UHGV virus genome: UHGV-1430452
Direction: 5' to 3' (one strand)
Length of the DNA: 64,000 nt
Source of the DNA: a virus
Both the position numbers and the translations under genes were made by a program. Below the pieces are notes generated by a model. The model saw nothing but the letters and a program-made list of their open reading frames with translations. It had not been told where the DNA came from and searched no databases. How positions within the stretch are numbered: position 1 is the stretch's first letter; the number at the start of each line of letters is the position of its first letter. Of the stretch, positions 305 through 58,312 are shown in pieces.

Positions 305-3300
305 TTACTTCACTCCTTTCAAATACTTAGATACTGTCGATGTAGAAACTCCCATCTTCTTAGCAATCTGTTCAAGTGTATAGTTAGATGCAGCCATTGC
401 TTTAGCTCTACTAACTTGTGCACTGCTTAGACTGTTGGTTAGTCTAGGAGTTGCTCGTTCTCTAAGGTTATCGATGTCTGTTGTGTTAAGGATTCTCTTA
501 AGCTGATTCTCACTAACAGCACCAGCTTGTATAGCTTCCCATTCTTTGTCACTGATCTCTATGTTACGATCTCTTCTAGAGATAGAGCCAACCTCTTGTC
601 TATACTTATTCAACGCCTGTTGGCTAAGCTTTCTCAACGGTTCTCCTTTAAGCTCTTCACCATGTTCTTCAAGGTAAGCCTTCTTCTTAGCTGCTATCTC
701 GGAATTAGCTTTTCGTTGAGCAGTTCTTTCTTTAATCTTATTGAGATCTGACTTATCGACTCTCTCCATTAAAGACTTAACCTCATCTCTATACGCAGCC
801 TTAGCACTTGCTGTTGTTTCGATCTTTCCTGTGTTAGCCATAGCTAATCTAGCTTTGTTACCAAGAGCTTTCATCTCATTAGCGTAGTCCGCATAGATAA
901 GTTCCATAGGATGTCTAGCTTTAGATACTAATTTATAAGCATCATCAGTCTCAGCCATCTTAGTACTTTGCTGCATACGGGTTTTAGTACGATATGTAAT
1001 ATCACCAGCGGCATTAGTATAGGTTACTTTCCCAGTGACGGGGTCTTTTTTCTCAATAGGGTTATACCTTTCGTAAGCTGCCTTATCTTTGGGATCATAT
1101 TCAATCTTCTTGCCATCAGCTGTTCGCACGGTAATAAGACCGGTCTTCTTATCTCGTTTTCTATCGACATAATATAGATCGTCGGCCTTCTTCCAAAGCT
1201 TGGCTCCATCTGGTTTGGTGGGGTCATAATCTTTACTACCTGGGATGTTTATTTTATATGAGCCTTGTCTTTTCTCAACTGAATATTGTCCCTTTGATCT
1301 TGATAAAATGGTAGAAGCTCCACCTGATCTTTCATTTCCGTCATCGTCAATACGAACCTGATACTTCTTTTTAAGTGCAGCAATATTGTTATCTATCTCA
1401 CTTTGTTTGTAATCAAGATGATGTTTCTCAGCATCAATAACAACCATGCTATGCTTAACTGCTCTTGCCAATTCTTTTTCATCAGCTCCAGCTAAAGTCA
1501 TATCAGTAATAAGATTGGATACAACACCCATCTGAGTTCCAGTGTTTTTCATGATGGGATATGCTTTTCCATTACGATAATAACGAACATTACCATCTGC
1601 ATCCTTCTTAGCAACACCACCATATTCAACCTTAGGATCAAATCCTTCAAGATCTTCAAGAGGTCGCTTATTAAGAATTTTTACCTTTCCACCTGGATCA
1701 TTGGTAGGAATACACATAACAGTATCGCCATCAAAGTCTGCACCTGAAAGCTGATCAGCAATCTTATGATTAATGCCGACTGCATCGATACTTTGTTTGC
1801 CAATTATTTTATCTCCCAGTGGATTCTTATTGTTAACTGTTAAGATAGGAATTTCAAATCGTCCGCCATGAGGATAACGAATAAGAGCGAGCTTAGTTCC
1901 ACTCTCGTAGTTTGGAGCATATACTTCATTGTCTTTTAAAGAGTTTATTGGAATAATAACGTGGTACTTCTGTCCAGGTAACGCTGCTGCTTTTAAATGT
2001 ACAGCCGCTGCATCGCAGCTATCTGCAAATTTCTCAAGCATATGTTTCTTAATAGTAGGATTAGTAATAGACATATACTCATCAAACTCAGCAAACTTAT
2101 CTTTCTTAGCAAGATCTAACTGTTTCTTAGCTAGAGTCTGTGACTGTTTAGCCAGGAACTGAGATGGTAATGCGTCCTGCCAATCATCCCAATCTCCTTC
2201 ATCGGATCTCTTATTAATGAGACCTAATTTCTTCTTACCGGTCTTAGGATCGTCATACCAATACTGTCCACCCTTGTCAGCATCTTTTATAAGAGAGCCA
2301 AATGGATTGTCTGGATCATCTTTCTTAATATTTTTAAGAACCGTACTTGTTTTATCGCCTAAAGCTGGAGTACCTTTTTTCTTATTCGTATTAAATATGA
2401 CATCTACTCCATCAGGCATGTTGTCAGAATATACTGCCATACCTTTAAGATAATGAGTTCCATCTACAAGAATACGAACCTGTGAATATCGTGAATCACC
2501 GAGATCAAGATCTTTACATCCTCTGCGAAGTTCAATGATACCGTCCTTATCAATACCCTTAAATCCATCAGCACCGACATCGTCTGCATATCGAACCATT
2601 AAACGTTTTGAATCAAGACTTGCAGGATATGTAAACTTCTTCTGGAATGTATCTCCTCCGTCTATTGATTCATAATCGTTAATTGTCTTTACTCTATCGT
2701 AGTCGTAGATTTCTTTATGTGCCGTTCCTGGTTTACAAAGAACTTTCTGGATGGTCTGTTGTCCTTTTGTATTTATCTGAGGAATACCACCAGTATACAC
2801 AGGATAACCTTCTGCTTTCTGTAAGTAATCAAGAGCAGTATTCAATCGTTCTTTGGATATGCCAAGAGATTTTTCAACACCAGCTGTTACATCGATCATA
2901 CCTTTTTGATCAACATGCTCTCGCAGAAAATCTACAGTCTCCATTGCCTGATGCATACGGTCTTCAGACTTAGGATTAAGAAGAGACCTTACTGTGGACT
3001 CTGGAATACCCATTTCTCTACCGATGGCAGTTGCTCCAAGTCCATCTTCTTTTAAAGATTTAGCTCTAGCTACCTGTTGTAATCTTTCTTCATAACCAGC
3101 CCAACTAATCTGCCTTCTATATTCTGTAGTTGTTAAGTCCATGGATTTAGCTATCGCATTATCTCCGGTCCAGGTCTTACCATTATCATCAGTGTAAGTA
3201 AAACCGGCTTTCTTAAGCTCTTTAACTCTTGCGAGGAAATCGGAACCATGTTGGTATCTATCTTTTCCACTTCCATAAGGATACCTACCGCTGCGGCGAG

Positions 3301-3475
3301 GCATACCATAATGCATAAGTTCATCTTCATTCGCGCTGTCTAAGCGATCAGACCAACCAAAATAAGAAAGGATCTCGTCAGCAACGGTGAACTCTTCATC
3401 GCTGTGCTCAAGATCCTCTTCTCCAAATATAGATTCTACAAGTTCGTTCAACGGAGGTTTCTCTAAGAACTCCAT
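305..3475 (-). CDS. large RNA polymerase-like protein (1056 aa): beta-prime-type double-psi beta-barrel motif ADFDGD preceded by IRYPHGGRFEIP; C-terminal HTH
   Basis: ADFDGD hexamer identical to multisubunit RNAP beta-prime NADFDGD; upstream R-x-P-H...F-E-P resembles the beta-prime NRxPTLHR...FEP block; HTH TLEQIAKKMGVSTSTVSKYLKG at C-terminus; start overlaps upstream stop with in-frame GAGGAGG. Confidence 0.85.
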   Translation of the reverse strand: MEFLEKPPLNELVESIFGEEDLEHSDEEFTVADEILSYFGWSDRLDSANEDELMHYGMPRRSGRYPYGSGKDRYQHGSDFLARVKELKKAGFTYTDDNGKTWTGDNAIAKSMDLTTTEYRRQISWAGYEERLQQVARAKSLKEDGLGATAIGREMGIPESTVRSLLNPKSEDRMHQAMETVDFLREHVDQKGMIDVTAGVEKSLGISKERLNTALDYLQKAEGYPVYTGGIPQINTKGQQTIQKVLCKPGTAHKEIYDYDRVKTINDYESIDGGDTFQKKFTYPASLDSKRLMVRYADDVGADGFKGIDKDGIIELRRGCKDLDLGDSRYSQVRILVDGTHYLKGMAVYSDNMPDGVDVIFNTNKKKGTPALGDKTSTVLKNIKKDDPDNPFGSLIKDADKGGQYWYDDPKTGKKKLGLINKRSDEGDWDDWQDALPSQFLAKQSQTLAKKQLDLAKKDKFAEFDEYMSITNPTIKKHMLEKFADSCDAAAVHLKAAALPGQKYHVIIPINSLKDNEVYAPNYESGTKLALIRYPHGGRFEIPILTVNNKNPLGDKIIGKQSIDAVGINHKIADQLSGADFDGDTVMCIPTNDPGGKVKILNKRPLEDLEGFDPKVEYGGVAKKDADGNVRYYRNGKAYPIMKNTGTQMGVVSNLITDMTLAGADEKELARAVKHSMVVIDAEKHHLDYKQSEIDNNIAALKKKYQVRIDDDGNERSGGASTILSRSKGQYSVEKRQGSYKINIPGSKDYDPTKPDGAKLWKKADDLYYVDRKRDKKTGLITVRTADGKKIEYDPKDKAAYERYNPIEKKDPVTGKVTYTNAAGDITYRTKTRMQQSTKMAETDDAYKLVSKARHPMELIYADYANEMKALGNKARLAMANTGKIETTASAKAAYRDEVKSLMERVDKSDLNKIKERTAQRKANSEIAAKKKAYLEEHGEELKGEPLRKLSQQALNKYRQEVGSISRRDRNIEISDKEWEAIQAGAVSENQLKRILNTTDIDNLRERATPRLTNSLSSAQVSRAKAMAASNYTLEQIAKKMGVSTSTVSKYLKGVK

Positions 3476-22136: not shown

Positions 22137-23423
22137 TTACCCATCCCATTTACACCACCGCCTTTCATTAAATTTTCGCTTTTCATGCAGAGCTCTGGAT
22201 ATTGCTAGGTCAATACCACTCCTACTTTTTAGATGATAGTAATATAAATCTATGAATGGAGAATTAAGTCTATCGATCCTACCCTTTGCCTGGAGTAATG
22301 TCTTGTATGAATATGTTTGCGAATAAAATACGATACAGTTTGTTTTAATGCAATTGAAACCCTCGGCTCCTGCTGAATAATTTACCAGATAAATCCACTT
22401 CTCGCTTTCTGGTATAGCATCATGCTGGTGTCCGTTATATTCTGCAATAACCACATCTTCTCCATAATATAGATTCTTCAAGATATCCAGTTCGTAGTCG
22501 AATGAATAGAACACAATCATTCTTGGATGTTGTTCAAATATCTCTAATAGTTTTATCTGGCGTGATTCATCTGAATTAACGATTCTACGTAGAACATAGC
22601 AAAGCCCAGAAGCTTGTTGGATAGGTTCTTGTTTAAAAGGATCAAAACGAGTTCTAATAGCTTGCTTGTATTTATGGATGTCGTAAGTAGCCGAAATATC
22701 AATGTCATGAGGTACCGTATGTCTCTCGAAATCCATATCAATAAGAATCCGATCTCTTAAACGAATCAATCTCGTCTCATTACGATAACCTTCAACACTA
22801 GGATACTTTGTCCAACGAGAATATATAATGTGCTCTTGCCTGAATTCCGTTCTATTACGAAAGAATCCATTAGCCACAAATACCGTTTCGTAATCTGACC
22901 AATTATCACCTGGACTAGCTGATAGTATGATCCATTCGTTAAATTTAGCTATCTTTAAAAAAGCTTTACACCATGCGCCTTTACCAGTTAGCTTATCTTC
23001 GTCAAATATAAATACAGCATCTCGAACATCTGCATATTTCTTTATGCATTGCCAACTATCGATAAATATTTTGTTCCCATATCTAGTCTTTTTAGTATCT
23101 GGATCAGGATATAAAAGAAACGGCATCAATTCTTCTTCCCATTCAAGATCATTTTTTTTCTTTGCTGTGCTGATAATGTATAAATCTGGTGGATTAGGTT
23201 TCATTGGTTTGTACTCTTTATTACCTATGTATCCTCCGTTTTTAGAGAAATACCAATACAAAGCAGTTCTAGATTTCCCAGAACCTGTGCCACCGTTAAG
23301 AATGCAACCGCTGAACATACGATCTATAGCCTGCTGTTGATGTGGATAGAGAAAATCCGTTTTGGTTTGAGTTTTGTTGTAAGAAATAGTATGTCGATCT
23401 TTATAGCTCACTTCCAAAATCAC
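22137..23423 (-). CDS. SF2 helicase (DEAD/DEAH-like NTPase)
   Basis: motif I GTGSGKS, motif II IFDEDK, motif III SAS, motif VI QAKGRIDR. Confidence 0.75.
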   Translation of the reverse strand: MILEVSYKDRHTISYNKTQTKTDFLYPHQQQAIDRMFSGCILNGGTGSGKSRTALYWYFSKNGGYIGNKEYKPMKPNPPDLYIISTAKKKNDLEWEEELMPFLLYPDPDTKKTRYGNKIFIDSWQCIKKYADVRDAVFIFDEDKLTGKGAWCKAFLKIAKFNEWIILSASPGDNWSDYETVFVANGFFRNRTEFRQEHIIYSRWTKYPSVEGYRNETRLIRLRDRILIDMDFERHTVPHDIDISATYDIHKYKQAIRTRFDPFKQEPIQQASGLCYVLRRIVNSDESRQIKLLEIFEQHPRMIVFYSFDYELDILKNLYYGEDVVIAEYNGHQHDAIPESEKWIYLVNYSAGAEGFNCIKTNCIVFYSQTYSYKTLLQAKGRIDRLNSPFIDLYYYHLKSRSGIDLAISRALHEKRKFNERRWCKWDG

Positions 23424-25966: not shown

Positions 25967-27535
25967 CTATTTAGCCAAGCCCCTTTCGTTTAGTGCATCC
26001 TCAACTGCGGAATATCGATCTGAGTTAAGTTGCTCTAATAAGCACTCTAGCGGATCGGTGTTATTACTAAGCACCATATTGGTAATAATCGGACTAAATC
26101 CACTTACTAAAGCAACTCCTAGATCGTTCTCTTTTACTGGGATGGTTCCTGTTCTGCTACAAATGTTCCAGAATATCAATCTAGGAAGTTTATAGCCGTA
26201 CTGAGAGTAACGATCTGATATCGTATTAAACAGTGTTTTACTCGGTCTGATATTGCTCCATCTTGAACCTCCTTCGCAACTAGCACAGCTATCAAATTCC
26301 ATATCTGATAAGATAAGTATGTTTTTAGGAATGTCGTTCTGTGACATGTTATTGTTGATTGCTGTTTTGAGAATAAGTTCAAATACAGCTTCGATGTTTG
26401 TGTTAGCCACCTCGTTGTATCTCCTGGCAATTTCGATCTTTTCTCTCAAAGATTCTCCGTTACTAAGATCTACTAAACGAGGATTCATGCTGAATGTAAT
26501 ATATTTGTCTCTGAATTCACCAGAACTTCTTTCAGAAAAATATATTGCAAGAGCATTGGCTACCTCTAAAGCTGTTACACTTGTTCCGCCGACAGGACAG
26601 TCCATACTACCCGATCCGTCCGCAACGCAAATTGTGTTACCGTCTCCGTTTACATAATCGGGAAGTGCTTTCCACAATTCTTCAAGTGTAATGTCATCTT
26701 TACCTTTGAGTTTATTCCCGTACCAAAATTCACCCCGATCAAAGTATTTATGTACAATATCATGCGGGAATAGTACACCAGCATTGATTTTCGTCTCGCC
26801 TTTCTGCAAACTCGCTAAGTAACTACTTCTCCTTTCCTCATCGTTCTTCATAAACGCATTACCATATATAATATTGGCTCTTGATGGAACCGCAGAATAA
26901 TCAATCTTTGACCATTCTTTCTTACACATACTAACTTCCACAACTTTTAAATATGCACGAAGATCCGAAAGCATTTTACGATAGGATTTCTCGTTAATAA
27001 ATAACTTCTGAATCATAAGACGTGCTAGTCGTTTTGTCTCTTTAGACGAAGTGTTTGCAGACGGCATCCATTTAGCTAATAAAGAAATAGGCTCTCCTAG
27101 AGATCTCTTCCTTATATCACTTGTCAACTGTGTAGATACAATTGATACAACGTAGTCTGAAACGTCAGTGTCTAATAAACACCATAAATCATCCCATCTA
27201 CCGTATTCCGGAACCAACGGAATGATTGCCTTTGATATATCGGCATGTTTTTCGGATAGATACTTAAGACAATATCTGAATAATCTTCTTTCTCCGAGAC
27301 CTTCTCGTACATCTCTGGCATAGAACAACCACTTGATAGCAAGCTGTTTGTTTTCGTAGAATGTCTTTACAAACTTGTCTACGATTTCTCCCTCGTCCAT
27401 ATTTCGCATGGATGTTACTGAAAAGTTGATGTCAAGAAGTTCTTTACCAGTAGTACGGTAACCAACTGCTCCATTTTCAGTAAGGCTTGTGTTGAATTCA
27501 TCATTGATTGTTTCTTTCAGATTGTTCATAAACAT
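25967..27535 (-). CDS. vWA-domain protein with MIDAS motif (522 aa); possibly TROVE/Ro60-like or DUF2828-type
   Basis: ICVADGSGSM is a DxSxS MIDAS motif; helical N-terminal region; family assignment tentative. Confidence 0.7.
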   Translation of the reverse strand: MFMNNLKETINDEFNTSLTENGAVGYRTTGKELLDINFSVTSMRNMDEGEIVDKFVKTFYENKQLAIKWLFYARDVREGLGERRLFRYCLKYLSEKHADISKAIIPLVPEYGRWDDLWCLLDTDVSDYVVSIVSTQLTSDIRKRSLGEPISLLAKWMPSANTSSKETKRLARLMIQKLFINEKSYRKMLSDLRAYLKVVEVSMCKKEWSKIDYSAVPSRANIIYGNAFMKNDEERRSSYLASLQKGETKINAGVLFPHDIVHKYFDRGEFWYGNKLKGKDDITLEELWKALPDYVNGDGNTICVADGSGSMDCPVGGTSVTALEVANALAIYFSERSSGEFRDKYITFSMNPRLVDLSNGESLREKIEIARRYNEVANTNIEAVFELILKTAINNNMSQNDIPKNILILSDMEFDSCASCEGGSRWSNIRPSKTLFNTISDRYSQYGYKLPRLIFWNICSRTGTIPVKENDLGVALVSGFSPIITNMVLSNNTDPLECLLEQLNSDRYSAVEDALNERGLAK

Positions 27536-36622: not shown

Positions 36623-37120
36623 TTACTCTTCCGGATGTTCCTCCGCTGCAAATCTGGATGAGAATCTGTCAATATCCTGAGTTACACACATTGACTGCAA
36701 ATATGCTGCACGGAATGGTTTACCGTTAATCTCAGAATCATACGGTCTGATATCAAGATCGACACTTGCAATATCAATTTCGTCGAGCATGGATACTGTT
36801 TCTTCATCAAGTTTGACTCTATTTCTACCAGACTGAAGATATACAATAGGGCCTCTGTCGTTAAATTTGACTTTAACTGGAAGATAGATAAATGGTTCAT
36901 CTCCATCTTCTCTTGGCGGTTTGATCTTTACATTCCATCCTGCTCCAAACTTATTTACATCATTCTGCAAAGCTTCTGCCATTTCTTCGTTAGGGATAAT
37001 CAAAGCGAAGTTACGGTCTCCTTCTTTGTTGAATTTACCGCCTTCTCCTCTGAAGTTTCTGAAAATGATTCTTGCGTCATCGATCTGTAATACTCCTCTT
37101 GGTGCGAATGTTAATTCCAT
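36623..37120 (-). CDS. hypothetical protein (165 aa); possibly ssDNA-binding by position next to the replicase
   Basis: location in replication module; no motif confirmed. Confidence 0.6.
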   Translation of the reverse strand: MELTFAPRGVLQIDDARIIFRNFRGEGGKFNKEGDRNFALIIPNEEMAEALQNDVNKFGAGWNVKIKPPREDGDEPFIYLPVKVKFNDRGPIVYLQSGRNRVKLDEETVSMLDEIDIASVDLDIRPYDSEINGKPFRAAYLQSMCVTQDIDRFSSRFAAEEHPEE

Positions 37121-37310: not shown

Positions 37311-37601
37311 CTATCGTAAAGATTTTGGGACAAGGCTTTTGATAATCTTTTTCTGATGCTCGTCCAGATCGTGATATAGAGTGAAACCCGTTGCCCCATT
37401 ATACTCATCGCCAAACTGTTTGTAGTACATAGATTGTTTCCATAACTCCGGATACTCTTTTTTGTACTTTGCGAGTTCTTTTGCTTTCTTGTCATACTGT
37501 TTATCCGAAATTATATTATTATCTAACTCGTAATAAATATATGAATGAAGTATGATATATCTTTGCAAGTAATCTATGTATTCGAGGGTTGTTAGTTCCA
37601 T
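37311..37601 (-). CDS. hypothetical protein (96 aa)
   Basis: start overlaps replicase stop; preferred over overlapping ORF 37136..37495. Confidence 0.6.
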   Translation of the reverse strand: MELTTLEYIDYLQRYIILHSYIYYELDNNIISDKQYDKKAKELAKYKKEYPELWKQSMYYKQFGDEYNGATGFTLYHDLDEHQKKIIKSLVPKSLR

Positions 37602-40600
37602 GGCAGCTCTACATCTTCATCATCGAATGGAATTTCCTCAGGAGATCCTTCCGGTATGTTCATGAAGTCTGGTAAATGAGAATCTCTAAAAGGAGGTTCA
37701 TGCCGATCTGAAGCATCCCAAGGCGGAGTACCAACATATGGATCGTCTGATATGAACCACTCAGCGTCTCCGTATTGACCAATAGTTTCAAGAGCATCAT
37801 CCACAAGCTTTCGATAATATGAACGATCAATATTTTCTTCATTTCCCGGAGACATCATTAACTCGGATTCAAGCCAACGGAAACCAGTTGTTCCTGTAGC
37901 TGCATAATATTTACCGTTCTGTTCTCGCATCAATAGTCCTCCACCCTTTCCAGGCTTAACCGGACAAAATTGCCCAACTTTACCTACGAAATGATAGTCA
38001 TGACCTTCAGCTATTAAATCGTTTAATCTTCGACACTCACTTTCGAAAGTTGTGTCCGATAACTTACCTTTCCTGTACTTATCTTCAAGTTTGGATAGTT
38101 CTTTTTCATACTCGGATACATCTGGAAGTTTTTCGTTCATATCCAAATATAAAGCAGATTTTACTGAGAATGCTTCGCACATATCTTTCAACTCAATTGG
38201 TTCTTTACTGAACAGTGTTTTAAATACATACGGAACTGCAAACTGTTTTCCAGTAGCTGTCCATTCTCCGGCATTCTTTCCATCTTTAAACCTAGCCACG
38301 TACACAGCATCATTTACTAAACAGAATTTTTCAAAGTTAGCCTCTGTTTCAAATGTATATCCGTATTCTTTACCGAATTTGGTTACGAAATCAATAATAT
38401 CAGGAGTAGCATCGGGTATCTTTATGGAATCTGTCTTGATATGACAAACAGTAAATCCTCGTTTCTGAACTTCTCTTTTCAATAATGTCATGAAGAGAGC
38501 TCCTCTTTTGGCAACAATGTTATCCTTATTTCTAGGATCTCTAAATTCATTTACGAAGCCAGCTGATGTCAAACCATAAATGGAATTGATAACAATCTTA
38601 AGTGCCTGCGCTAAATCAGCAGCCTGTTCTTCATTTAAGTATGGTTTCAACGCTCCACCTAATAATTGTCCAGCTGTTTCAAAGTCTTTATGCTTAATTG
38701 CAACACGAGCTTTTACAATATCCTCAAACCGTTTTGTATATTCTGGTCCAAATAGACATTCGAATATAATACTGTGAGGATGCTGAGAAGCAATGTCTCC
38801 ATCCCATACATTACCGTAATGCCCAGGTTCAGAGTAAACCCGACCGCCTTCTCCAATGGCTTCGCCTAAATATGTTGATTTACCAAACTCAAAAGTATAG
38901 CCTTTAAAGAATGGAAGAATGCTATAACCTTCTGGAAGCTTTTCGCCAGGAACGTAAGATCGATATAATGGAAGACCCTCAGAATCAAATACTCTGAAAT
39001 CATAATCATCTCCGAATTTAATTCTATATTCATCATAACGATCTGAGCTAACCGGTTCCGCCAAGTATCTATAGTTGAATACATTCTGCGGTTTTTTATT
39101 ATTTCCAAATATAATTCTTTTAGAAAGAGTATTTGTCGTATCATTAACTGTAACGTTTGTAATATCATGTAAGAGTTTTACAAGATCAACCTGAATCTGT
39201 CTAGCAACAAAGTCTGCTTTTCTTGCATTGAATACAGCTTCCGTCGCAATGACATCATTATCGCAATACTCAGCAACCTTTGCCCATAATTCTTCTGGAA
39301 CTGGTTGATCCCAAGGAAGACCAAGCTCTTGATGATGAATACCCAGTTCAATCTCCCATTTCTTTAAACTCTGTTTCACAGTTGACATATCATATACATC
39401 AATGTAACCAAGATTATATGCCTCACCAAACATGCCATTATCACGGCTTCCCTTTGGAGCATTAATAATTCTTTGAGATAACTTATATATTTCCTCATTT
39501 GTGTATCCCATAAGTCTAGCATAAATGATATGTCTGTCGTATTTACGTCCATTAAAATCAACAAGTTTAAACTTTAGAAGATTTTCTATTTCTGCTGGTG
39601 TAGGATTAATTAATCTAACTACTGTTTTTCCTTCTCCAGCAAACTTATAGTTTACCAAAAATAAATTTGGGAATACCTCACAATCATAGAATACAAGATC
39701 GTCAGTATCACCCTCATTACTTGTCTCTGAAGCCTCTTCACTCTTAAACGCCATCTGATTAACTAACTTCAAACACTCATCAGCCTGGTTACTACTACTC
39801 GCCGCCAAAGCAAATACAGCATTTTTCATATCAGACACATCATATCCAATACCACTCTCATAAGCCTCATCCAAAAGTTTCTTAATCATTTGAATACTTG
39901 GAGCTGTGTTACCCATAATTTCTTTATTCAGATGTTTCTTAAGAACGGATCTCAAATATTTCTCATTCTTAATACCATCAAAGTTAATCACATTTTTCAC
40001 CTCTTTCAACGGAAGACCTGAGCTAATTGTACGAATAACAAGATTGACACACTTAGTAAGTTTTCTTCTAAGAGATGTTTTACCGGTAAATACCTTAATC
40101 TCGATATCCTCATCAAATATACGACTTAATTCACTCACATCACCGTTATAAATATAATGAAGATGAATACCTCCACCACTTTTGCTTAACTCAGCATATG
40201 TTGGAGGCCATTTACTAGCTGCTTCAAGATTCTTCTCGAAACATTTATTACCATTCTCGTCCTTAATATCAAAGTCAATAACTACATGATTTTCAGGGAC
40301 CTTGACGTAATGAAGTTTTGATGTGTCAAGTTCTGATAGGGTAGTTGAAACTTCATCCCATGGCTTCGTCGGAGTTTCTTTTGAAGTAGCATATTGAGCT
40401 GGACAATCAGAACATTCTTTATCAAAAATAGACTCCTGTTCTTCAAATATAAGCCAGCTCTCAGTTTTCTCATCTCCAATAGGTTTCTCTGCTTTAACCT
40501 TTTTCTTCCCACCAATAGAGTCTTCGAAAATATCAGTCTTAAAACCGTCGTAATAACTCAGCAGCTTACTTCCATCTTCTTTCTCCACCTTCTCATCAAA

Positions 40601-41818
40601 TTCCAAAAAATAGTTTCTCAACTCGTCTTTGAATTTTGTCTTAGAAAATGGATACGGCACTTTTGCTTCCTCACAGTAGTTTTTATACATCTCCCATGCT
40701 GCTTTTAGCGTAGTACCATCTTCTTTCTTGAAGACACTGAATGAATCACATACGAAGTTATAAAAGTCATTAGAAGCCATAAGCATGTCCTTCGGAGCGT
40801 AAGTATCGTAATACTCTGGATCTTCTTTAAAGACTTGTAAACAATGATATGCGATTGCTCCCAACTCAAAATCAACCTGTTTGGTCAATCTACGATATTC
40901 TCGAATCGGTATCTTGTTTCCAGTAGGACGAACGTCAATCAAACGCCTTAGTAAACCAGACTTAGCATCAGTGATCTTAACAGGTGTGTTTGTACCCATA
41001 AATAAAAAACATTTGAATCTTGTTTCATATTGTCCTTTAAATTTTTCATTCATGGTCATTATCTCGTGTGAAATCACCGAGTTTAAGCGCGTATTATCTT
41101 CGATTTTTGATAAATCACCATCATGTTGTATCGCTACAAGAGGGTTATTCTTAAACGGTTCCAGAGCGAAAACATTATTCGGATTACCCAAAGCTTTTGC
41201 GTCAAAAGAACAACAATATCCTTCAAATAATTTCTCGATAATATTTATGATAGTTGATTTACCAGTACCACCAGCTCCGTAAAGCACCAGGAACTTTTGA
41301 AGTATTTTTGATTCCCCAGATACAACGGAGCCGATAGCCCATTCTATTTTACGTCGTTCTTCTTCGGAATATAGAGTACCGATGAGTTTATCCCATGCAG
41401 AAATATCGCCAGGTTCGAGAGGATACGGGAGTCTCTTGCTTGCGAAATTCTCTCTGCTTAATTCTGTGTTTGAAAATATAAGTTCATCATCGAGTACAGC
41501 AAAGTTATCACGCATCTGTTTCTGACAATATTTATGGAACTTATCGATTGAGCCACTGTCAGCATCCCACATATACTTAATTACAGGAGTACCTTCAAGA
41601 CGTCCTTCATTTTCAGCGACATATCTATCAAGTTCTCTATCTACAAGACGGGTTACATCGTCTTCATCTGTACTCCACATCTTTCGATCTTCATCCCAGA
41701 TAGCGTAAAAGTCCCTACCTCGAATCATGAGATCTTTAGATTTCAACATTTTGAACTTAGGAGAAACATCAACACTGCTTTTATTCGTCTTCGTTGATAC
41801 TGTCATGAAGTCCAACAT
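37592..41818 (-). CDS. multidomain replicase (1408 aa): SF3 helicase-type NTPase + primase-polymerase (AEP) domain + family B DNA polymerase with 3'-5' exonuclease
   Basis: Walker A VLYGAGGTGKST and motif C FMGTNTP; AEP motifs VVIDFDIKD and GGGIHLHY; exonuclease FYDCEVF and YCDNDVIATEAVF; PolB motif A DIASQHPHS, motif B KIVINSIYG, motif C HIKTDS. Confidence 0.9.
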   Translation of the reverse strand: MLDFMTVSTKTNKSSVDVSPKFKMLKSKDLMIRGRDFYAIWDEDRKMWSTDEDDVTRLVDRELDRYVAENEGRLEGTPVIKYMWDADSGSIDKFHKYCQKQMRDNFAVLDDELIFSNTELSRENFASKRLPYPLEPGDISAWDKLIGTLYSEEERRKIEWAIGSVVSGESKILQKFLVLYGAGGTGKSTIINIIEKLFEGYCCSFDAKALGNPNNVFALEPFKNNPLVAIQHDGDLSKIEDNTRLNSVISHEIMTMNEKFKGQYETRFKCFLFMGTNTPVKITDAKSGLLRRLIDVRPTGNKIPIREYRRLTKQVDFELGAIAYHCLQVFKEDPEYYDTYAPKDMLMASNDFYNFVCDSFSVFKKEDGTTLKAAWEMYKNYCEEAKVPYPFSKTKFKDELRNYFLEFDEKVEKEDGSKLLSYYDGFKTDIFEDSIGGKKKVKAEKPIGDEKTESWLIFEEQESIFDKECSDCPAQYATSKETPTKPWDEVSTTLSELDTSKLHYVKVPENHVVIDFDIKDENGNKCFEKNLEAASKWPPTYAELSKSGGGIHLHYIYNGDVSELSRIFDEDIEIKVFTGKTSLRRKLTKCVNLVIRTISSGLPLKEVKNVINFDGIKNEKYLRSVLKKHLNKEIMGNTAPSIQMIKKLLDEAYESGIGYDVSDMKNAVFALAASSSNQADECLKLVNQMAFKSEEASETSNEGDTDDLVFYDCEVFPNLFLVNYKFAGEGKTVVRLINPTPAEIENLLKFKLVDFNGRKYDRHIIYARLMGYTNEEIYKLSQRIINAPKGSRDNGMFGEAYNLGYIDVYDMSTVKQSLKKWEIELGIHHQELGLPWDQPVPEELWAKVAEYCDNDVIATEAVFNARKADFVARQIQVDLVKLLHDITNVTVNDTTNTLSKRIIFGNNKKPQNVFNYRYLAEPVSSDRYDEYRIKFGDDYDFRVFDSEGLPLYRSYVPGEKLPEGYSILPFFKGYTFEFGKSTYLGEAIGEGGRVYSEPGHYGNVWDGDIASQHPHSIIFECLFGPEYTKRFEDIVKARVAIKHKDFETAGQLLGGALKPYLNEEQAADLAQALKIVINSIYGLTSAGFVNEFRDPRNKDNIVAKRGALFMTLLKREVQKRGFTVCHIKTDSIKIPDATPDIIDFVTKFGKEYGYTFETEANFEKFCLVNDAVYVARFKDGKNAGEWTATGKQFAVPYVFKTLFSKEPIELKDMCEAFSVKSALYLDMNEKLPDVSEYEKELSKLEDKYRKGKLSDTTFESECRRLNDLIAEGHDYHFVGKVGQFCPVKPGKGGGLLMREQNGKYYAATGTTGFRWLESELMMSPGNEENIDRSYYRKLVDDALETIGQYGDAEWFISDDPYVGTPPWDASDRHEPPFRDSHLPDFMNIPEGSPEEIPFDDEDVELPWN

Positions 41819-42029
41819 TCATCTTATGGCCTCCTTTCATTTTTTTAATATATGATTCTAATGTTTCATAGCACCAGTCATAAAAATTATGGTAAGTAAA
41901 AACAAAATCCGAGCCGCTTTTTATGCGAACTCGGACACTATCTTTACCGTTGGGGAACCAGTCTTCTACATGAATTGCAATTTCCGGAAATTGTTTGCTA
42001 AATTGTTTATATACATCTTCGTGCTTCAT
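41781..42029 (-). CDS. hypothetical protein (82 aa)
   Basis: co-directional ORF. Confidence 0.6.
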   Translation of the reverse strand: MKHEDVYKQFSKQFPEIAIHVEDWFPNGKDSVRVRIKSGSDFVFTYHNFYDWCYETLESYIKKMKGGHKMNVGLHDSINEDE

Positions 42030-44028: not shown

Positions 44029-44967
44029 TCAAATCATGTTGAGAATATCCCCATCCACATTGAAATCAAGAAGAATAGTTCTCTCATAACCGTTCACGAA
44101 GTTACGATTTGCCTCGTTGTAAGTGTTATAGATTCCGAAATCTACGAAATTATCACCTACTGGATGTTTCTCGTCATAAATCCATCCAACAATCTGACCT
44201 GCCTGTGTACGCGGGATTCCGAGCATATCATATACTTCATTCAGGAACAGATGACCTTTCGTTTTCAACATGTCATTTGCATAACGCTGCTGATCTTTAA
44301 GGAACATTAGATTGAATTCAGGATCTTTAGTCCATCCTGTACATCCATCATCGAAGAATTTAGCATAATCGCTGTAACTGTCGAGAGTTGCTACATTTGC
44401 TGTTTTCTTAACAGTAGTTTCTGTACCATCTTCATTTACAACAGTCTCTTCGATTTCTTTTGCTTTGATGTTGTACTTCAGTTCTTTATCAAGCTCTTCA
44501 CCAAATCTCTCAATAACACGACCACGATATTCCTTGAAGCCTTTGTCAATAGTTGCATAAGCGGCTGCAAGTGCTAAGTTACGTTTACGAAGAATATGAT
44601 GACCACTAAGAATAGCAGCGATAGAAACTGTTCCAAGGATTACTGCTGGAGCATAAAGTTTTGCTACCTTTACGGCTGTTTGAGTATACATGATAGTTAA
44701 ATCTTTCTTACCATCTTCTTCTGTGTACTCTTTACCTTCTGGAACCATATCTGGATTTTCCATAAATTCATGAATTTTCTCGATTTTTTCTTTTGGCTCA
44801 GCGAGCACCTCATCGAGTTTAGTAGTTGCTTTACATGCCATTACAGCAGAGCCAACTACACCAACAATACCTGCGCCAACCAAGATTTCAGGGCTATGCT
44901 TTTTAAATTTAAAACCTACACGATGGAGGCTTCTAGTTACTGTGTTCATAATTTCTAATTTTGCCAT
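44029..44967 (-). CDS. two-TM-anchored modular protein (312 aa), paralog family A (N-terminal domain shared with 47042 and 49330; C-terminal domain shared with 21525)
   Basis: N-terminal ...PEILVGAGIVGVVGSAVMACKAT... and C-terminal FFDDGCTGWTKDPEFNLMFLKDQQRY blocks. Confidence 0.75.
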   Translation of the reverse strand: MAKLEIMNTVTRSLHRVGFKFKKHSPEILVGAGIVGVVGSAVMACKATTKLDEVLAEPKEKIEKIHEFMENPDMVPEGKEYTEEDGKKDLTIMYTQTAVKVAKLYAPAVILGTVSIAAILSGHHILRKRNLALAAAYATIDKGFKEYRGRVIERFGEELDKELKYNIKAKEIEETVVNEDGTETTVKKTANVATLDSYSDYAKFFDDGCTGWTKDPEFNLMFLKDQQRYANDMLKTKGHLFLNEVYDMLGIPRTQAGQIVGWIYDEKHPVGDNFVDFGIYNTYNEANRNFVNGYERTILLDFNVDGDILNMI

Positions 44968-44969
44968 GA

Positions 44970-45416
44970 TTATTTACTCTCCTTTTCTAATTCTTTACAA
45001 AATTCCATTAAACTTTTACCGCGAATAAGAATATCGTTTGGTGTTAAAACAATATCAGGTTCCTTGCTCTTATTCGGATTCTCAACATATTCAATAAGCC
45101 TATTGAGATACCACTGAGCTTTCTTTAAGTCCTCAATGCCGTTTTTCTTTTTCCAGCGACATAAATACTTCATTGCATTACCTGTACAAAATGCTTCTAA
45201 TCCGTTAAGACCATCACAAAAGGCCTCGATAACGTCGATAGTTTCGAGACCTGATTTTGACTGATAATGATCCGGATGATTCACCATATCGTTTTTGGCA
45301 ACCCATTGTGTCGGAATACAAAAAGGATCATCGCTCGTTATACAGTGTTTACAAGCTTCCGATCCCATTGTACGACCACAATTGTCACAATCATATTTGC
45401 TTTTTGTTATACTCAT
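44970..45416 (-). CDS. DUF3310-like phage protein
   Basis: NHPDHY...GLETIDVIEAF...GNAMKYLCRWKKK resembles the DUF3310 HPxHY signature. Confidence 0.6.
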   Translation of the reverse strand: MSITKSKYDCDNCGRTMGSEACKHCITSDDPFCIPTQWVAKNDMVNHPDHYQSKSGLETIDVIEAFCDGLNGLEAFCTGNAMKYLCRWKKKNGIEDLKKAQWYLNRLIEYVENPNKSKEPDIVLTPNDILIRGKSLMEFCKELEKESK

Positions 45417-47041: not shown

Positions 47042-47869
47042 TTAATAGTAGCTATCGAAACCATATTCCGGAGGCATCAGATGATCAATAACAATACACG
47101 GTTCATTATCTTCCGTAATTTGAGCACTATATCTCACATCGATTTTGCCTTTATCGATTCTCCAACCGATGCTATTACCAACTTCGGTATGCTTAAGACC
47201 AATTTCGTCATAGAAATCATTCAGAGAAATATACATCTCGTTACCGTTGATCATTCTCTCATTAAGAGTAAGAACAGCATTTTTAATCTTGTCGATATCC
47301 GATCTGAAATATCTGTCGGAATGACTGTCATAACACAACGTGTTACCTTTACCTGTCATGATAATCTGAGTGTCTGCAACCGGATGTTCTTCAACTTGCT
47401 TCTTAGCGACTTTATCTCTGATGTTATTTTCCTTCTTCTCTCCGATAGTCTCTACCACTTTCTCTCTGTAGTCAGACAGTGCTGTTGTAGATAACTGATA
47501 TGCTGTTGCCAATGCTGCGTTACGTCTTACATGTACGGAATTAGCACCGATAAGACAAGCGACTGACGCAATGCCAGTGATAGCTGCTGGAATATAAGGT
47601 TTCCAAGCTGCTTTTACTGTTTCGACAGGTGTGAGATTTAAAGCGTTTCTTTCGTCTTCTTCTGTGAAAATACCGCCTTCATGAGCTTCTTTCTCTTTAA
47701 ACTTCTTCTCTTCCTCGATTAACTCCATAGCTTTTGGTGTTGCTTTTACTGCAAGCACAACAGTAGATATCATACCTGCGATACCAATGCCAGTAAGAAT
47801 TTCCGGACTGCGTTTTTTCATTACATATTTTGCAGTGTTTAAAAATTTTGTTACATTTGGTTTGTTCAT
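47042..47869 (-). CDS. two-TM-anchored modular protein, paralog family A (275 aa)
   Basis: N-terminal domain aligns with 44029 and 49330. Confidence 0.75.
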   Translation of the reverse strand: MNKPNVTKFLNTAKYVMKKRSPEILTGIGIAGMISTVVLAVKATPKAMELIEEEKKFKEKEAHEGGIFTEEDERNALNLTPVETVKAAWKPYIPAAITGIASVACLIGANSVHVRRNAALATAYQLSTTALSDYREKVVETIGEKKENNIRDKVAKKQVEEHPVADTQIIMTGKGNTLCYDSHSDRYFRSDIDKIKNAVLTLNERMINGNEMYISLNDFYDEIGLKHTEVGNSIGWRIDKGKIDVRYSAQITEDNEPCIVIDHLMPPEYGFDSYY

Positions 47870-49140: not shown

Positions 49141-49349
49141 GTGTAATGGATATGCTCATTGTTTAATTCGTCGAGATGTTTAATAAAATCTAAATATCTT
49201 TTATTTCGTCTATTCTCCACAAAGTTTATAACTAACCAAGCAATCCCTACGATAGGCAAGCCAACGAATACTAATAGAAATAGTAAGCATGTAATCATAG
49301 AAACAAGCGTATTCATAAATCTTCTCCTTTCAATACTCTTCGTAATCAA
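49134..49349 (-). CDS. small membrane protein (71 aa)
   Basis: two hydrophobic segments; track start may overextend into the motif. Confidence 0.55.
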   Translation of the reverse strand: MITKSIERRRFMNTLVSMITCLLFLLVFVGLPIVGIAWLVINFVENRRNKRYLDFIKHLDELNNEHIHYTR

Positions 49350-50106
49350 TGAACGGCTCTGTGAAATCTACAATATAACATTCAATACCGTCGTCCATTT
49401 CTACTTTTGTATGGTGGAAATATAGCCAACCATCCCAGTACATTTCATACATCTGAGCTGCGGACCAACCCATAAATTCACCGTAATCCTGTCGATCAAT
49501 CTCTAGTAAATCGTAATAATCGTTTAAAGATGCACCACCGGATTGAGATAGCATTTTATTAATCTCATACTCTGCTCTCAATTGAGTTTCTTTCGTCACA
49601 CGGTAATAACGTTTGGAATATTCATCGTAGAATAGTGTTTTGCCATCCTCGTATTCGTCGTCATATTCTTCTTTGTCTTCTTCCTCGTAATGGTCTTTTG
49701 CTACAGCAGCACGAATGAGTTTGTCTCCGTCTTCACCATATAACTTTTTAACTTTGTTTTTGTACTCTTTGTGAGTTTGGTCTAGTAAGGCATAAGCAGA
49801 TGCGATGGCTGCTTGGGAATGTTTGTTTAATAGATTCGCGCCAAATATGCAAGCTAGGGTTCCTGTTCCAATCAATAAGGAAGGAATATATGTTGGTCCT
49901 GCTACTCGAATAGTCTCCCATTTTGTTAATTCATCTCCTTTCTCTTCTTCAGCTAGTTCAATAAGTTCCATTGCTTTCGGAGTAGCTTTAACCGCCATTA
50001 CAGCTGTACCTACCACTCCGGCAGCTCCTAATACTGTTAATATAGTAGAGCTGTTTTTCTTTACGAATCTTTTCGAAACTGTTAGTAAGTCATTCATTTC
50101 CAGCAC
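49330..50106 (-). CDS. two-TM-anchored modular protein, paralog family A (258 aa)
   Basis: N-terminal domain aligns with 44029 and 47042. Confidence 0.75.
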   Translation of the reverse strand: MLEMNDLLTVSKRFVKKNSSTILTVLGAAGVVGTAVMAVKATPKAMELIELAEEEKGDELTKWETIRVAGPTYIPSLLIGTGTLACIFGANLLNKHSQAAIASAYALLDQTHKEYKNKVKKLYGEDGDKLIRAAVAKDHYEEEDKEEYDDEYEDGKTLFYDEYSKRYYRVTKETQLRAEYEINKMLSQSGGASLNDYYDLLEIDRQDYGEFMGWSAAQMYEMYWDGWLYFHHTKVEMDDGIECYIVDFTEPFIDYEEY

Positions 50107-56649: not shown

Positions 56650-56734
56650 GTCTACATAGGTTTACTCTATTTAAAGGAGGTGATGCCTGAATTCAGTTCA
56701 TCGTAGAATTTACATCAAAGGAAAGGTGGAACCA

Positions 56735-58312
56735 ATGACAACGTTTGATATGAACAACGCTGTAGACAATGCGTTCGGTATGGACGTATATGCTATCTAT
56801 CTTCGGAAAAGTCGAGCCGATGTAGAAGCAGAAAAACTTGGAGAAGGAGAAACACTAGCAAGGCATAGAAAGATACTAACAGAACTTGCTGCTAGAAAAG
56901 GATTGTATATCGGTAAGATTTACGAGGAAATTGTATCTGGTGAAACAATCGAAGCTAGACCTGAAATACAAAAACTGATAGAAGATTGTTATAAAGGGAA
57001 ATATAGAGGAATCCTAATAGTAGAAGTTACTCGTCTATCTCGTGGTAATCAAGGAGACGCTCAAAAAATACTCGACTGTCTCAAATATTCGAATAGAAAC
57101 AATGGTGTATTAGTTATCACTCCTACTAAGACTTATGACGTTGCACACAGCCAAGAAGACGAAGAATATATGGAGTTTGAATTGTTTATGTCTCGTCGAG
57201 AATATAAGATGATTCAAAAGCGTATGGATCGTGGCCGTAAACAAGCAGTCGTAGAAGGAAACTTCATGGGTAGTTACCGTCCCTATGGATATGACATCTT
57301 AAAAACCAAGACCGGACGAACACTTATACCGAATGAAGATGAAGCTCCTATCGTGAAAATGATTTACGAATGGACAGTTAACGATAATTTATCTCCTTTC
57401 AAGATAGCTGAGCGTTTAACTAATATGGGTGTTCCTACTTATTATGGTGAGAAGGATTGGTCTAAAGAAACAGTTAAAACCATTTTGACGAATCAGACAT
57501 ACATGGGTAAAGTTCGTTGGAATGATCGAATGACTGTTAAGACTATGGTCGACGGAGAACTTAAAGCTACACGACCTCGTTCAAATCATTCCGATCACTT
57601 CATGCTATATGATGGAAAACATATGAAACACGCACTCGTCGACGAAGAAACATTCAAAGCAGCCTCCTCTCGCTTTCATAACGATAGGACAAGATCAAAT
57701 CTAAAACTTGTTAATCCTCTTGCAGGACTTCTATTTTGTAAGAAATGTGGTAAATCTATGGGTTATCAATCATATAGACATAAGAAAAACGGACCAATGG
57801 ATCGATACAATCATAGACAGTCTGCTAATGGATGCAAGGTTAAGTCAGCAGTTGCTGAGGATGTTATAAAAGCTGTTATACATGCTTTGAAACTTTATAT
57901 AGAAGATTTCGAATTTAAGTTAGACAACACTCCAGATGTTGACGAAAATTCAATCAATACGCAGCTCGAAGCTTTACAAAAAGAAATACGAAAATCCGAA
58001 CGAAAACTTGCTAAGCTATTCGATTCTTGGGAAGATGAGAAGATAACAGATAATGAATTTGTTCAAAGGAAAGCCGTCCATAATCAGAAGATAGAAAATA
58101 TAAAGAGGCAAATGGAAGAACTCGAATATTCGATACCAGAAAGAGAAGAATATGAGGATAAAATAATATTGCTGTCTGAAGCACTTGTCGCTATCACAGA
58201 CGAATCGCTTGACGCAGATATTAAGAACGAGTATCTTAAAAGAATCATTGATAGAATAGAGTTTAGTAGAGAGAATAACTCAGAGTTTATACTAGATATA
58301 GACTTATGCTAA
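56735..58312 (+). CDS. large serine recombinase (phage integrase)
   Basis: N-terminal YAIYLRKSRAD catalytic-Ser motif, zinc ribbon CKKCGKS...C, C-terminal coiled coil; start moved to ATG with SD AAAGGTGGA. Confidence 0.85.
   Translation: MTTFDMNNAVDNAFGMDVYAIYLRKSRADVEAEKLGEGETLARHRKILTELAARKGLYIGKIYEEIVSGETIEARPEIQKLIEDCYKGKYRGILIVEVTRLSRGNQGDAQKILDCLKYSNRNNGVLVITPTKTYDVAHSQEDEEYMEFELFMSRREYKMIQKRMDRGRKQAVVEGNFMGSYRPYGYDILKTKTGRTLIPNEDEAPIVKMIYEWTVNDNLSPFKIAERLTNMGVPTYYGEKDWSKETVKTILTNQTYMGKVRWNDRMTVKTMVDGELKATRPRSNHSDHFMLYDGKHMKHALVDEETFKAASSRFHNDRTRSNLKLVNPLAGLLFCKKCGKSMGYQSYRHKKNGPMDRYNHRQSANGCKVKSAVAEDVIKAVIHALKLYIEDFEFKLDNTPDVDENSINTQLEALQKEIRKSERKLAKLFDSWEDEKITDNEFVQRKAVHNQKIENIKRQMEELEYSIPEREEYEDKIILLSEALVAITDESLDADIKNEYLKRIIDRIEFSRENNSEFILDIDLC

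Follow-up and report, generated by a model that had tools for sequence, protein, structure and literature searches.

A stretch of 64,000 nucleotides (nt) from the virus genome UHGV-1430452, analysed as a whole and hereafter called the window, carries on its minus strand (37592..41818) a gene for a 1408-residue polypeptide in which a superfamily 3 (SF3) helicase, an archaeo-eukaryotic primase (AEP), and a DNA polymerase of family B (PolB) with its 3'-5' exonuclease are predicted to follow one another. With a probability of about 0.9, this protein belongs to the known and characterised HelPrimPolB (GP55-like) "four-in-one" family and is the principal replicase of a temperate, gut-type tailed phage. 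Its architecture has been described before; the sequence is a new, unannotated member of the family with some lineage-specific accessories.

The architecture has been reported for gp55 of Lactococcus phage 1706 as an SF3 helicase, an AEP, and a PolB (Kazlauskas et al., 2016; PMC4889955). The PolB group was later named HelPrimPolB, was found to be prevalent in metagenomes, and was assigned to the EpsilonN-like clade as one of its divergent members, its motif C and KxY differing profoundly (Kazlauskas et al., 2020; PMC7544198). Purified GP55 acted as a helicase, an RNA primase, a polymerase, and an exonuclease (Zhang, Lu, Zhu, and Huang, 2025, Nucleic Acids Research; PMC12205980). In that study, the DNA polymerase activity was abolished by D949A, the 3'-5' exonuclease by D712A/E714A, and the helicase and strand displacement activities, which depend on UTP/dTTP, by K189A. 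RNA primers of 2-22 nt, with 5'-CCAAC-3' as the preferred site and GTP initiation, were made by the PriS-like domain together with a new accessory primase module, the alpha-helix domain (αHD), and their synthesis was abolished in D509A, Y655, and F667 mutants. GP55 needs the AEP domain for de novo synthesis and is dimeric, with its primase and polymerase cooperating in trans; over 1000 proteins are homologous to it, most of them from phages whose bacterial hosts are associated with humans (PMC12205980).

The window protein matched 1706 gp55 over residues 7-1395 (tblastn, 38.5% identity, E=0, 875 bits), and the MAFFT alignment was collinear. They share the domain order of N-terminal domain, SF3 helicase, AEP, αHD, and PolB exonuclease and polymerase, with identities of 28%, 34%, 63%, 45%, 50%, and 51% in these regions, respectively. 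The gene and its predicted domains are as follows.

41830..41837, minus strand: Shine-Dalgarno-like AAAGGAGG (GGAGG), read from the sequence, separated by 11 nt from the ATG at 41818
37592..41818, minus strand: complete coding sequence (1408 aa plus TAA) of the probable HelPrimPolB (GP55-like) four-in-one replicase, from the open reading frame (ORF) list, phrog_4210, and tblastn to gp55
41429..41818, minus strand: conserved N-terminal alpha/beta domain (aa 1-130), without family assignment, from the alignment and model
40511..41428, minus strand: SF3 (D5/P4-type) helicase core and C-terminal helical/winged-helix region (aa 131-436), with Walker A G181-T189 (K187), Walker B D233, sensor-1 N277, and arginine finger R291/R292
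40409..40510, minus strand: poorly conserved, low-confidence linker (aa 437-470), from the model and identity blocks
40004..40408, minus strand: PriS-like AEP primase catalytic domain (aa 471-605), with motif I D515-x-D517, motif II S545-G548-G550-H552, and motif III E573
39743..40003, minus strand: four-helix αHD (aa 606-692), from the model and GP55 alignment
39104..39742, minus strand: PolB 3'-5' exonuclease subdomain (aa 693-905), from alignment invariants and Foldseek, with Exo I D712/E714, Exo II N756/D761, and Exo III Y851/D855
37739..39103, minus strand: PolB polymerase subdomains (aa 906-1360), with motif A D1008, motif B K1074/N1078/Y1081/G1082, divergent motif C H1126-x-K1128-T-D1130-S, and lineage-variable inserts at aa 918-968 and 1231-1276
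38915..39067, minus strand: insert 1 (aa 918-968), a helix and beta-hairpin before motif A, from the model and alignment
37991..38128, minus strand: insert 2 (aa 1231-1276), a helical hairpin in the thumb region, from the model and alignment
37595..37738, minus strand: disordered acidic C-terminal tail (aa 1361-1408) ending in EEIPFDDEDVELPWN, from a predicted local distance difference test (pLDDT) score <50

The gene is a single ORF that runs unbroken from ATG to TAA. A database copy of 100% identity (P0001) has its start placed at Met5, which makes it 4 aa shorter (1404 aa); it bears the label 'hypothetical protein', and DUF5906 is the only family in its precomputed Pfam annotation. Met1 is preferred as the start because D3 and F4 are invariant in the family alignment. 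At 41781..41818 (minus strand), the start of the replicase overlaps by 38 nt the end of an upstream 82-aa ORF (phrog_16983, unknown function).

The residues found essential in GP55 correspond to those of the window protein as follows.

GP55 K189: window K187
GP55 D509: window D517
GP55 D712/E714: window D712/E714
GP55 D949: window D1008
GP55 Y655: window Y659, conserved
GP55 F667: window L671, the sole departure among the GP55-essential residues

The initial annotation had proposed an SF3 helicase-type NTPase, a primase, and a family B polymerase in one chain, on the basis of nine motifs. In a motif check on the 1408-aa translation, each of them was present exactly once and in the order claimed.

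Walker A, VLYGAGGTGKST: aa 178-189
Sensor-1, FMGTNTP: aa 273-279
AEP motif I, VVIDFDIKD: aa 512-520
AEP motif II, GGGIHLHY: aa 548-555
Exo I, FYDCEVF: aa 710-716
Exo III, YCDNDV: aa 851-856
Pol motif A, DIASQHPHS: aa 1008-1016
Pol motif B, KIVINSIYG: aa 1074-1082
Pol motif C, HIKTDS: aa 1126-1131

Further motifs can be added, namely Walker B IQHDGD (230-235), the arginine finger R291/R292, AEP motif III IEIKVF (E573), and Exo II FNGRKYD (D761). The three named modules were each supported by independent tests, and motifs, profiles, and folds together bear out the proposed combination; the domain reading had missed Exo II and the four-helix αHD between the AEP and the PolB.

The fusion recurs widely. 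Residues 2-1361 matched phrog_4210 ('DNA polymerase') at profile positions 1-1290 of 1304 (E=0). A search for homologous fusions by tblastn against 50,697 phage records gave 323 matching records, 252 of which, all in GenBank, cover at least 80% of the protein. The full-length matches listed come from Gordonia, Arthrobacter, Streptomyces, Curtobacterium, Microbacterium, Lactococcus, and Faecalibacterium phages and from human saliva and faecal contigs, and the annotations among the matches listed are 'DNA primase/polymerase', 'DNA polymerase', or 'helicase/polymerase'. A large protein database holds thousands of relatives, the best 120 metagenomic proteins being 66-100% identical and 1331-1441 aa long. 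When 1.84 billion cluster representatives were scanned exhaustively by HMMER with the PolB part only (aa 671-1408), 1432 of them matched at E<=1e-3 and 392 at E<=1e-30; of the 150 best, 127 reach a length of at least 1200 aa and have the PolB part in their C-terminal half. Megablast of the 20-kb neighbourhood returned one distant phage record only (MT835485, 72.6% identity over 14% of the query), indicating that no close sequenced phage genome is available.

In the Streptomyces phages Rainydai (MH155877) and Bing (MG757154), the replicase matches fall in two pieces with about three small ORFs between them; in Rainydai, both flanking genes are annotated DNA primase/polymerase. This layout suggests a split gene or a mobile insertion.

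The catalytic residues are intact in every module and near-invariant in an alignment with the 127 full-length representatives, which are 39-63% identical to the window protein; most of them are retained in 123-127 of the 127. For the helicase, K187, N277, and R291 are each conserved in 126 of 127, and D233 is Asp in 108 and Glu in the other 19. For the AEP, D515 and E573 are invariant (127/127), followed by H552 (126) and D517 (125). For the exonuclease, D712, E714, D761, Y851, and D855 are found in all 127 and N756 in 125, and for the polymerase D1008, K1074, N1078, Y1081, G1082, H1126, and D1130 are likewise found in all 127. K1128, a Lys in place of the first Asp in the canonical motif C (DTD), occurs in 124. 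This near-invariance indicates that all four active sites are under purifying selection.

Pfam searches on the whole protein returned DUF5906 as the sole family above cut-off, with neither DNA_pol_B nor Prim-Pol, so that the PolB and AEP calls rest on profiles, folds, and the literature. For the helicase, DUF5906 matched aa 179-292 (7e-13) and Pox_D5 matched 353-413 weakly. A nine-sequence family profile identified the SaPI5 primase-helicase 7ola (5.6e-9) and the C-terminal region of NrS-1 (2.5e-4), and the predicted fold is of the D5 type. With its Walker A, Walker B, sensor 1, and arginine finger, the region has what is expected of the N-terminal SF3 helicase of HelPrimPolB proteins.

The N-terminal domain preceding it, which the GP55 study assigns to the 'helicase domain' (PMC12205980), is modelled as beta strands and helices and is found in 126 of the 127 representatives; D3, F4, P20, D29, G34, F37, Y38, A39, W48, and D60 are invariant in the alignment. 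A Pfam search of this domain (aa 1-130) gave no match. In the linker that follows the helicase region, pLDDT is <50 at residues 433-452 and identity is low in blocks 421-460.

For the PolB, the model (aa 671-1408) reached a pLDDT of 82.3 and a predicted template modelling (pTM) score of 0.73. The top 50 Foldseek matches to this model in the PDB are all family B polymerases matched over the whole length, including 9°N (best, 5e-14), KOD, Pfu, Tgo, E. coli Pol II, and human Pol alpha. The marginal match to Pol II in a single-sequence phmmer search against the PDB (E 0.19) was raised to 1.4e-6 with the nine-sequence profile, which also matched Pyrococcus abyssi PolB (4e-4), spanning motifs A-C. 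The region contains, C-terminal to the other modules, Exo I-III, Pol motifs A and B, and the divergent motif C specific to the group. By homology to the 1706 gp55 group, the PolB of the window protein would belong to the EpsilonN-like clade, which comprises the HelPrimPolB, crAss-like, and PolEpsilonN groups.

For the primase, a PriS-like domain with catalytic motifs A/B/C lies centrally, C-terminal to the helicase, and has a predicted AEP fold. The region matched phrog_3022 at 5e-4, and alignment to NrS-1 N300 by hhalign pairs IDFDI with IDLDH and SKSGGGIHLH with SPSGDGLHVV. A profile of the primase region alone gave no AEP match in the PDB, its one hit being a spurious lactococcin-immunity match in the αHD (E 0.09). 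From sequence comparison alone, the AEP assignment would be a weak one. Between the AEP and the PolB sits the αHD, modelled as helices at 613-630, 642-654, 662-674, and 679-688. A profile of this region gave no meaningful match in the PDB, consistent with the report of no known homologue in the GP55 paper.

Two alternatives concern the identity of the gene itself. That the ORF is an artefact, a frameshift or assembly error joining a helicase-primase gene to a polymerase gene, would find a parallel in the split versions of Rainydai and Bing; however, the frame runs on without stops, the junction from αHD to Exo I aligns gap-free among relatives, and the intact fusion recurs in independent genomes, as seen in the 252 phage records, at least 120 metagenomic proteins, and 127 of the best 150 representatives. 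Because of this recurrence an artefactual join was rejected, its probability being close to nil. It is also very improbable that the polymerase lies outside family B, being either PolA/TV-Pol-like, as in Pas55 of phage phiAsp2, or a primer-independent piPolB that would make the AEP redundant. The missing Pfam match to DNA_pol_B and the aberrant motif C (HIKTDS versus DTDS) could be read in this way, and PolA fusions with an SF3 helicase exist (PMC4889955). The divergent motif C is, however, a known HelPrimPolB trait (PMC7544198), motif A (DxxSxxPxS) and motif B (Kx3NSxYG) are canonical for PolB, and E. coli phage genes of the Seuratvirus/Nonagvirus type annotated 'DNA polymerase B' match aa 709-1175 (tblastn). 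An identity as PolA or TV-Pol was rejected since the top 50 fold matches are all to PolB and the profile matched E. coli Pol II and archaeal PolBs, and the requirement of GP55 for its AEP domain speaks against a piPolB. The domain searches by profile and fold thus upheld both the PolB and the primase assignments of the initial annotation.

Several observations nevertheless weigh against a four-in-one replicase that works as GP55 does. The model of the N-terminal half is of moderate confidence (pLDDT 72.8, pTM 0.43). Pfam Prim-Pol stayed below cut-off, with sub-threshold matches in seven of nine family members (best 0.0018), and the hhalign match to NrS-1 N300 (E 4.8e-4) has a probability of only 32%. 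For NTP preference, priming-site specificity, and oligomeric state, the extrapolation would be from GP55, whose helicase region has only 34% identity. In addition, L671 (39806..39808, minus strand) stands at the position of F667, whose mutation abolishes primer synthesis by GP55; among the 127 relatives this residue is Phe in 122 and Leu in one. This substitution could point to a family member with a weakened or repurposed primase, in which the AEP and αHD are poor at making RNA primers and the PolB is primed by a recombination-dependent or transcript route, and the phage also has a large single-subunit RNA polymerase-like protein (phrog_4291) and an ssDNA-binding/annealing protein. However, the exchange of Phe for Leu is a conservative, hydrophobic one, another Phe (F669) lies two residues upstream, and close relatives such as P0057 also carry Leu. 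Furthermore, D515, D517, H552, and E573 of the AEP and Y659 of the αHD are all intact, and the AEP is the region most similar to GP55. A weakened primase is accordingly considered unlikely, and a replicase of the HelPrimPolB family with a working primase is preferred.

For the accessory parts of this HelPrimPolB protein, insert 918-968 is modelled with a pLDDT around 90 or above and has a comparable length in 25 of the 127 representatives; insert 1231-1276 is occupied in 54, and a C-terminal tail of comparable length is found in nine only. The acidic tail ending in EEIPFDDEDVELPWN resembles the C-terminal tail of bacterial single-stranded DNA-binding protein (SSB; DDDIPF) and those of T7 gp4 and gp2.5, which are acidic and end in an aromatic residue. 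Its sub-lineage may have gained the insert, the hairpin, and the tail as accessories absent from GP55, possibly for processivity or for recruiting SSB-interacting partners of host or phage, which would couple the replisome in a manner unlike that of GP55; this is a tentative suggestion with a rather low probability.

The architecture, folds, and intact active sites are evident here from sequence and predicted structure, and the conserved catalytic residues suggest that the window polypeptide would combine the four activities, which have been demonstrated for GP55 only. By analogy with GP55, the helicase would unwind duplex DNA and give the polymerase strand displacement; that of GP55 uses UTP/dTTP. 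The AEP and αHD would make short RNA primers on single-stranded DNA (ssDNA), the primer sites of GP55 being loosely defined (e.g. 5'-CCAAC-3', with a GTP start). The PolB would extend these primers in cis, or in trans within an oligomer such as the GP55 dimer, and proofread through its 3'-5' exonuclease. Together with the adjacent ssDNA-binding protein, the polypeptide would supply the core activities of the replisome.

The neighbouring genes fit a minimal replication module. Just downstream of the replicase, at 36623..37120 (minus strand), lies a gene for a phage ssDNA-binding protein (PF24083, 5e-42; phrog_4787, 'single strand annealing protein'), and a separate 428-aa helicase (phrog_62) is encoded at 22137..23423 (minus strand). 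This context matches those of phage 1706 and Faecalibacterium phage FP_oengus. The putative helicase GP67 of phage 1706, which resembles RNA helicases (PMC12205980), may be the counterpart of the phrog_62 helicase. At 37311..37601 (minus strand), overlapping the replicase stop by 10 nt, lies a gene for a 96-aa protein resembling domain Ia of NAD+ ligases (Pfam Nlig-Ia PF22745, 8.7e-22; phrog_6466, 'DNA ligase'), which stands alone without an adenylation domain. It was rejected as a conserved partner of the replicase, not being homologous to the genes downstream of the replicase in 1706 and FP_oengus.

Elsewhere in the window, 305..3475 (minus strand) encodes a 1056-aa protein (phrog_4291, 'RNA-dependent RNA polymerase', E=0) with a motif like a helix-turn-helix or sigma-70 region 4 at its C-terminus (aa 1016-1054); the protein may be a single-subunit phage RNA polymerase of the YonO-like, two-barrel kind. 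On the minus strand, the 6 kb upstream of the replicase hold three paralogues of phrog_2152, a family of unknown function (44029..44967, 47042..47869, and 49330..50106; 4e-93, 2e-91, and 9e-67). Also on the minus strand are a 522-aa protein (25967..27535; phrog_850, 'RNA-binding protein', 2e-139) and a 148-aa protein (44970..45416) matching families annotated 'nucleotide kinase' (phrog_236, 3e-35). A large serine recombinase/integrase (56726..58312, plus strand; phrog_95, 1e-91) is encoded on the opposite strand at the window's only strand switch, and the GC skew flips at about 56 kb. The integrase at the strand switch, together with the skew flip, suggests a temperate phage or prophage.

The main value of these results is the correct annotation of the replicase, which provides one more case, from a gut phage, of a replisome more compact than any other known, a single chain comprising helicase, primase, polymerase, and proofreading; no new biological question is raised by it. 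Biotechnology has an interest in such enzymes for isothermal amplification of DNA without added primers, and the documented diversity (the inserts, the tail, and the F-to-L exchange in the αHD) could guide the choice of variants for characterisation.

Among other known systems, Pas55 of Actinoplanes phage phiAsp2 (SF3 helicase, DnaG primase, and PolA) is the only other reported fusion of helicase, primase, and polymerase in a single polypeptide, and it follows the same logic. Its DnaG/TOPRIM primase and family A polymerase are unrelated to the window modules, so that the two proteins are analogous and homologous at the helicase only; Pfam and PHROG searches of the window protein gave no TOPRIM or PolA family match, and an AEP fold and a PolB fold were found instead. 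The classical AEP-SF3 primase-helicases, namely the NrS-1 primase-polymerase, pRN1 ORF904, the SaPI5 primase-helicase, poxvirus D5/E5, and African swine fever virus C962R, differ in domain order: in the window protein the order is reversed, the helicase motifs (aa 178-295) preceding the AEP motifs (aa 512-577), which are followed by the PolB. In addition, the αHD replaces their helix-bundle/PriCT accessory domain, and bulk synthesis would be performed by a separate PolB, whereas their AEP acts as a PrimPol. The arrangement, called unusual in the initial annotation, is indeed so relative to these classical proteins, but it is the published defining architecture of the HelPrimPolB/GP55 family (PMC4889955, PMC7544198, PMC12205980).

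Within this family, the 'DNA primase/polymerase' proteins of Gordonia, Arthrobacter, Streptomyces, Curtobacterium, and Microbacterium phages (SEA-PHAGES annotation) match over the full length with 43-49% identity and the same module order. These actinobacteriophage homologues are without both lineage-specific inserts, some have an extra insertion in the AEP region, and those of a few Streptomyces phages are split. The closest GenBank phage relatives, which share the architecture and have a comparable neighbourhood, with the SSB gene downstream and the helicase gene apart, are an uncultured human faecal phage (MT835485, 64% identity over the full length) and FP_oengus, whose 'helicase/polymerase' (AUV56521) is 53% identical over the full length. 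In FP_oengus, insert 918-968 is shorter, and most of insert 1231-1276 and the long acidic tail are lacking. GP55 of Lactococcus phage 1706 (Fremauxvirus) shares with the window protein the motif C H-x-K-T-D-S and a comparable genomic setting, in which an ssDNA-binding protein and another helicase are encoded. The window protein is 91 aa longer because of the structured insert 918-968, the helical insert 1231-1276, and the 48-aa acidic tail, and the host of its phage is probably a gut Firmicute, whereas that of the GP55 phage is Lactococcus.

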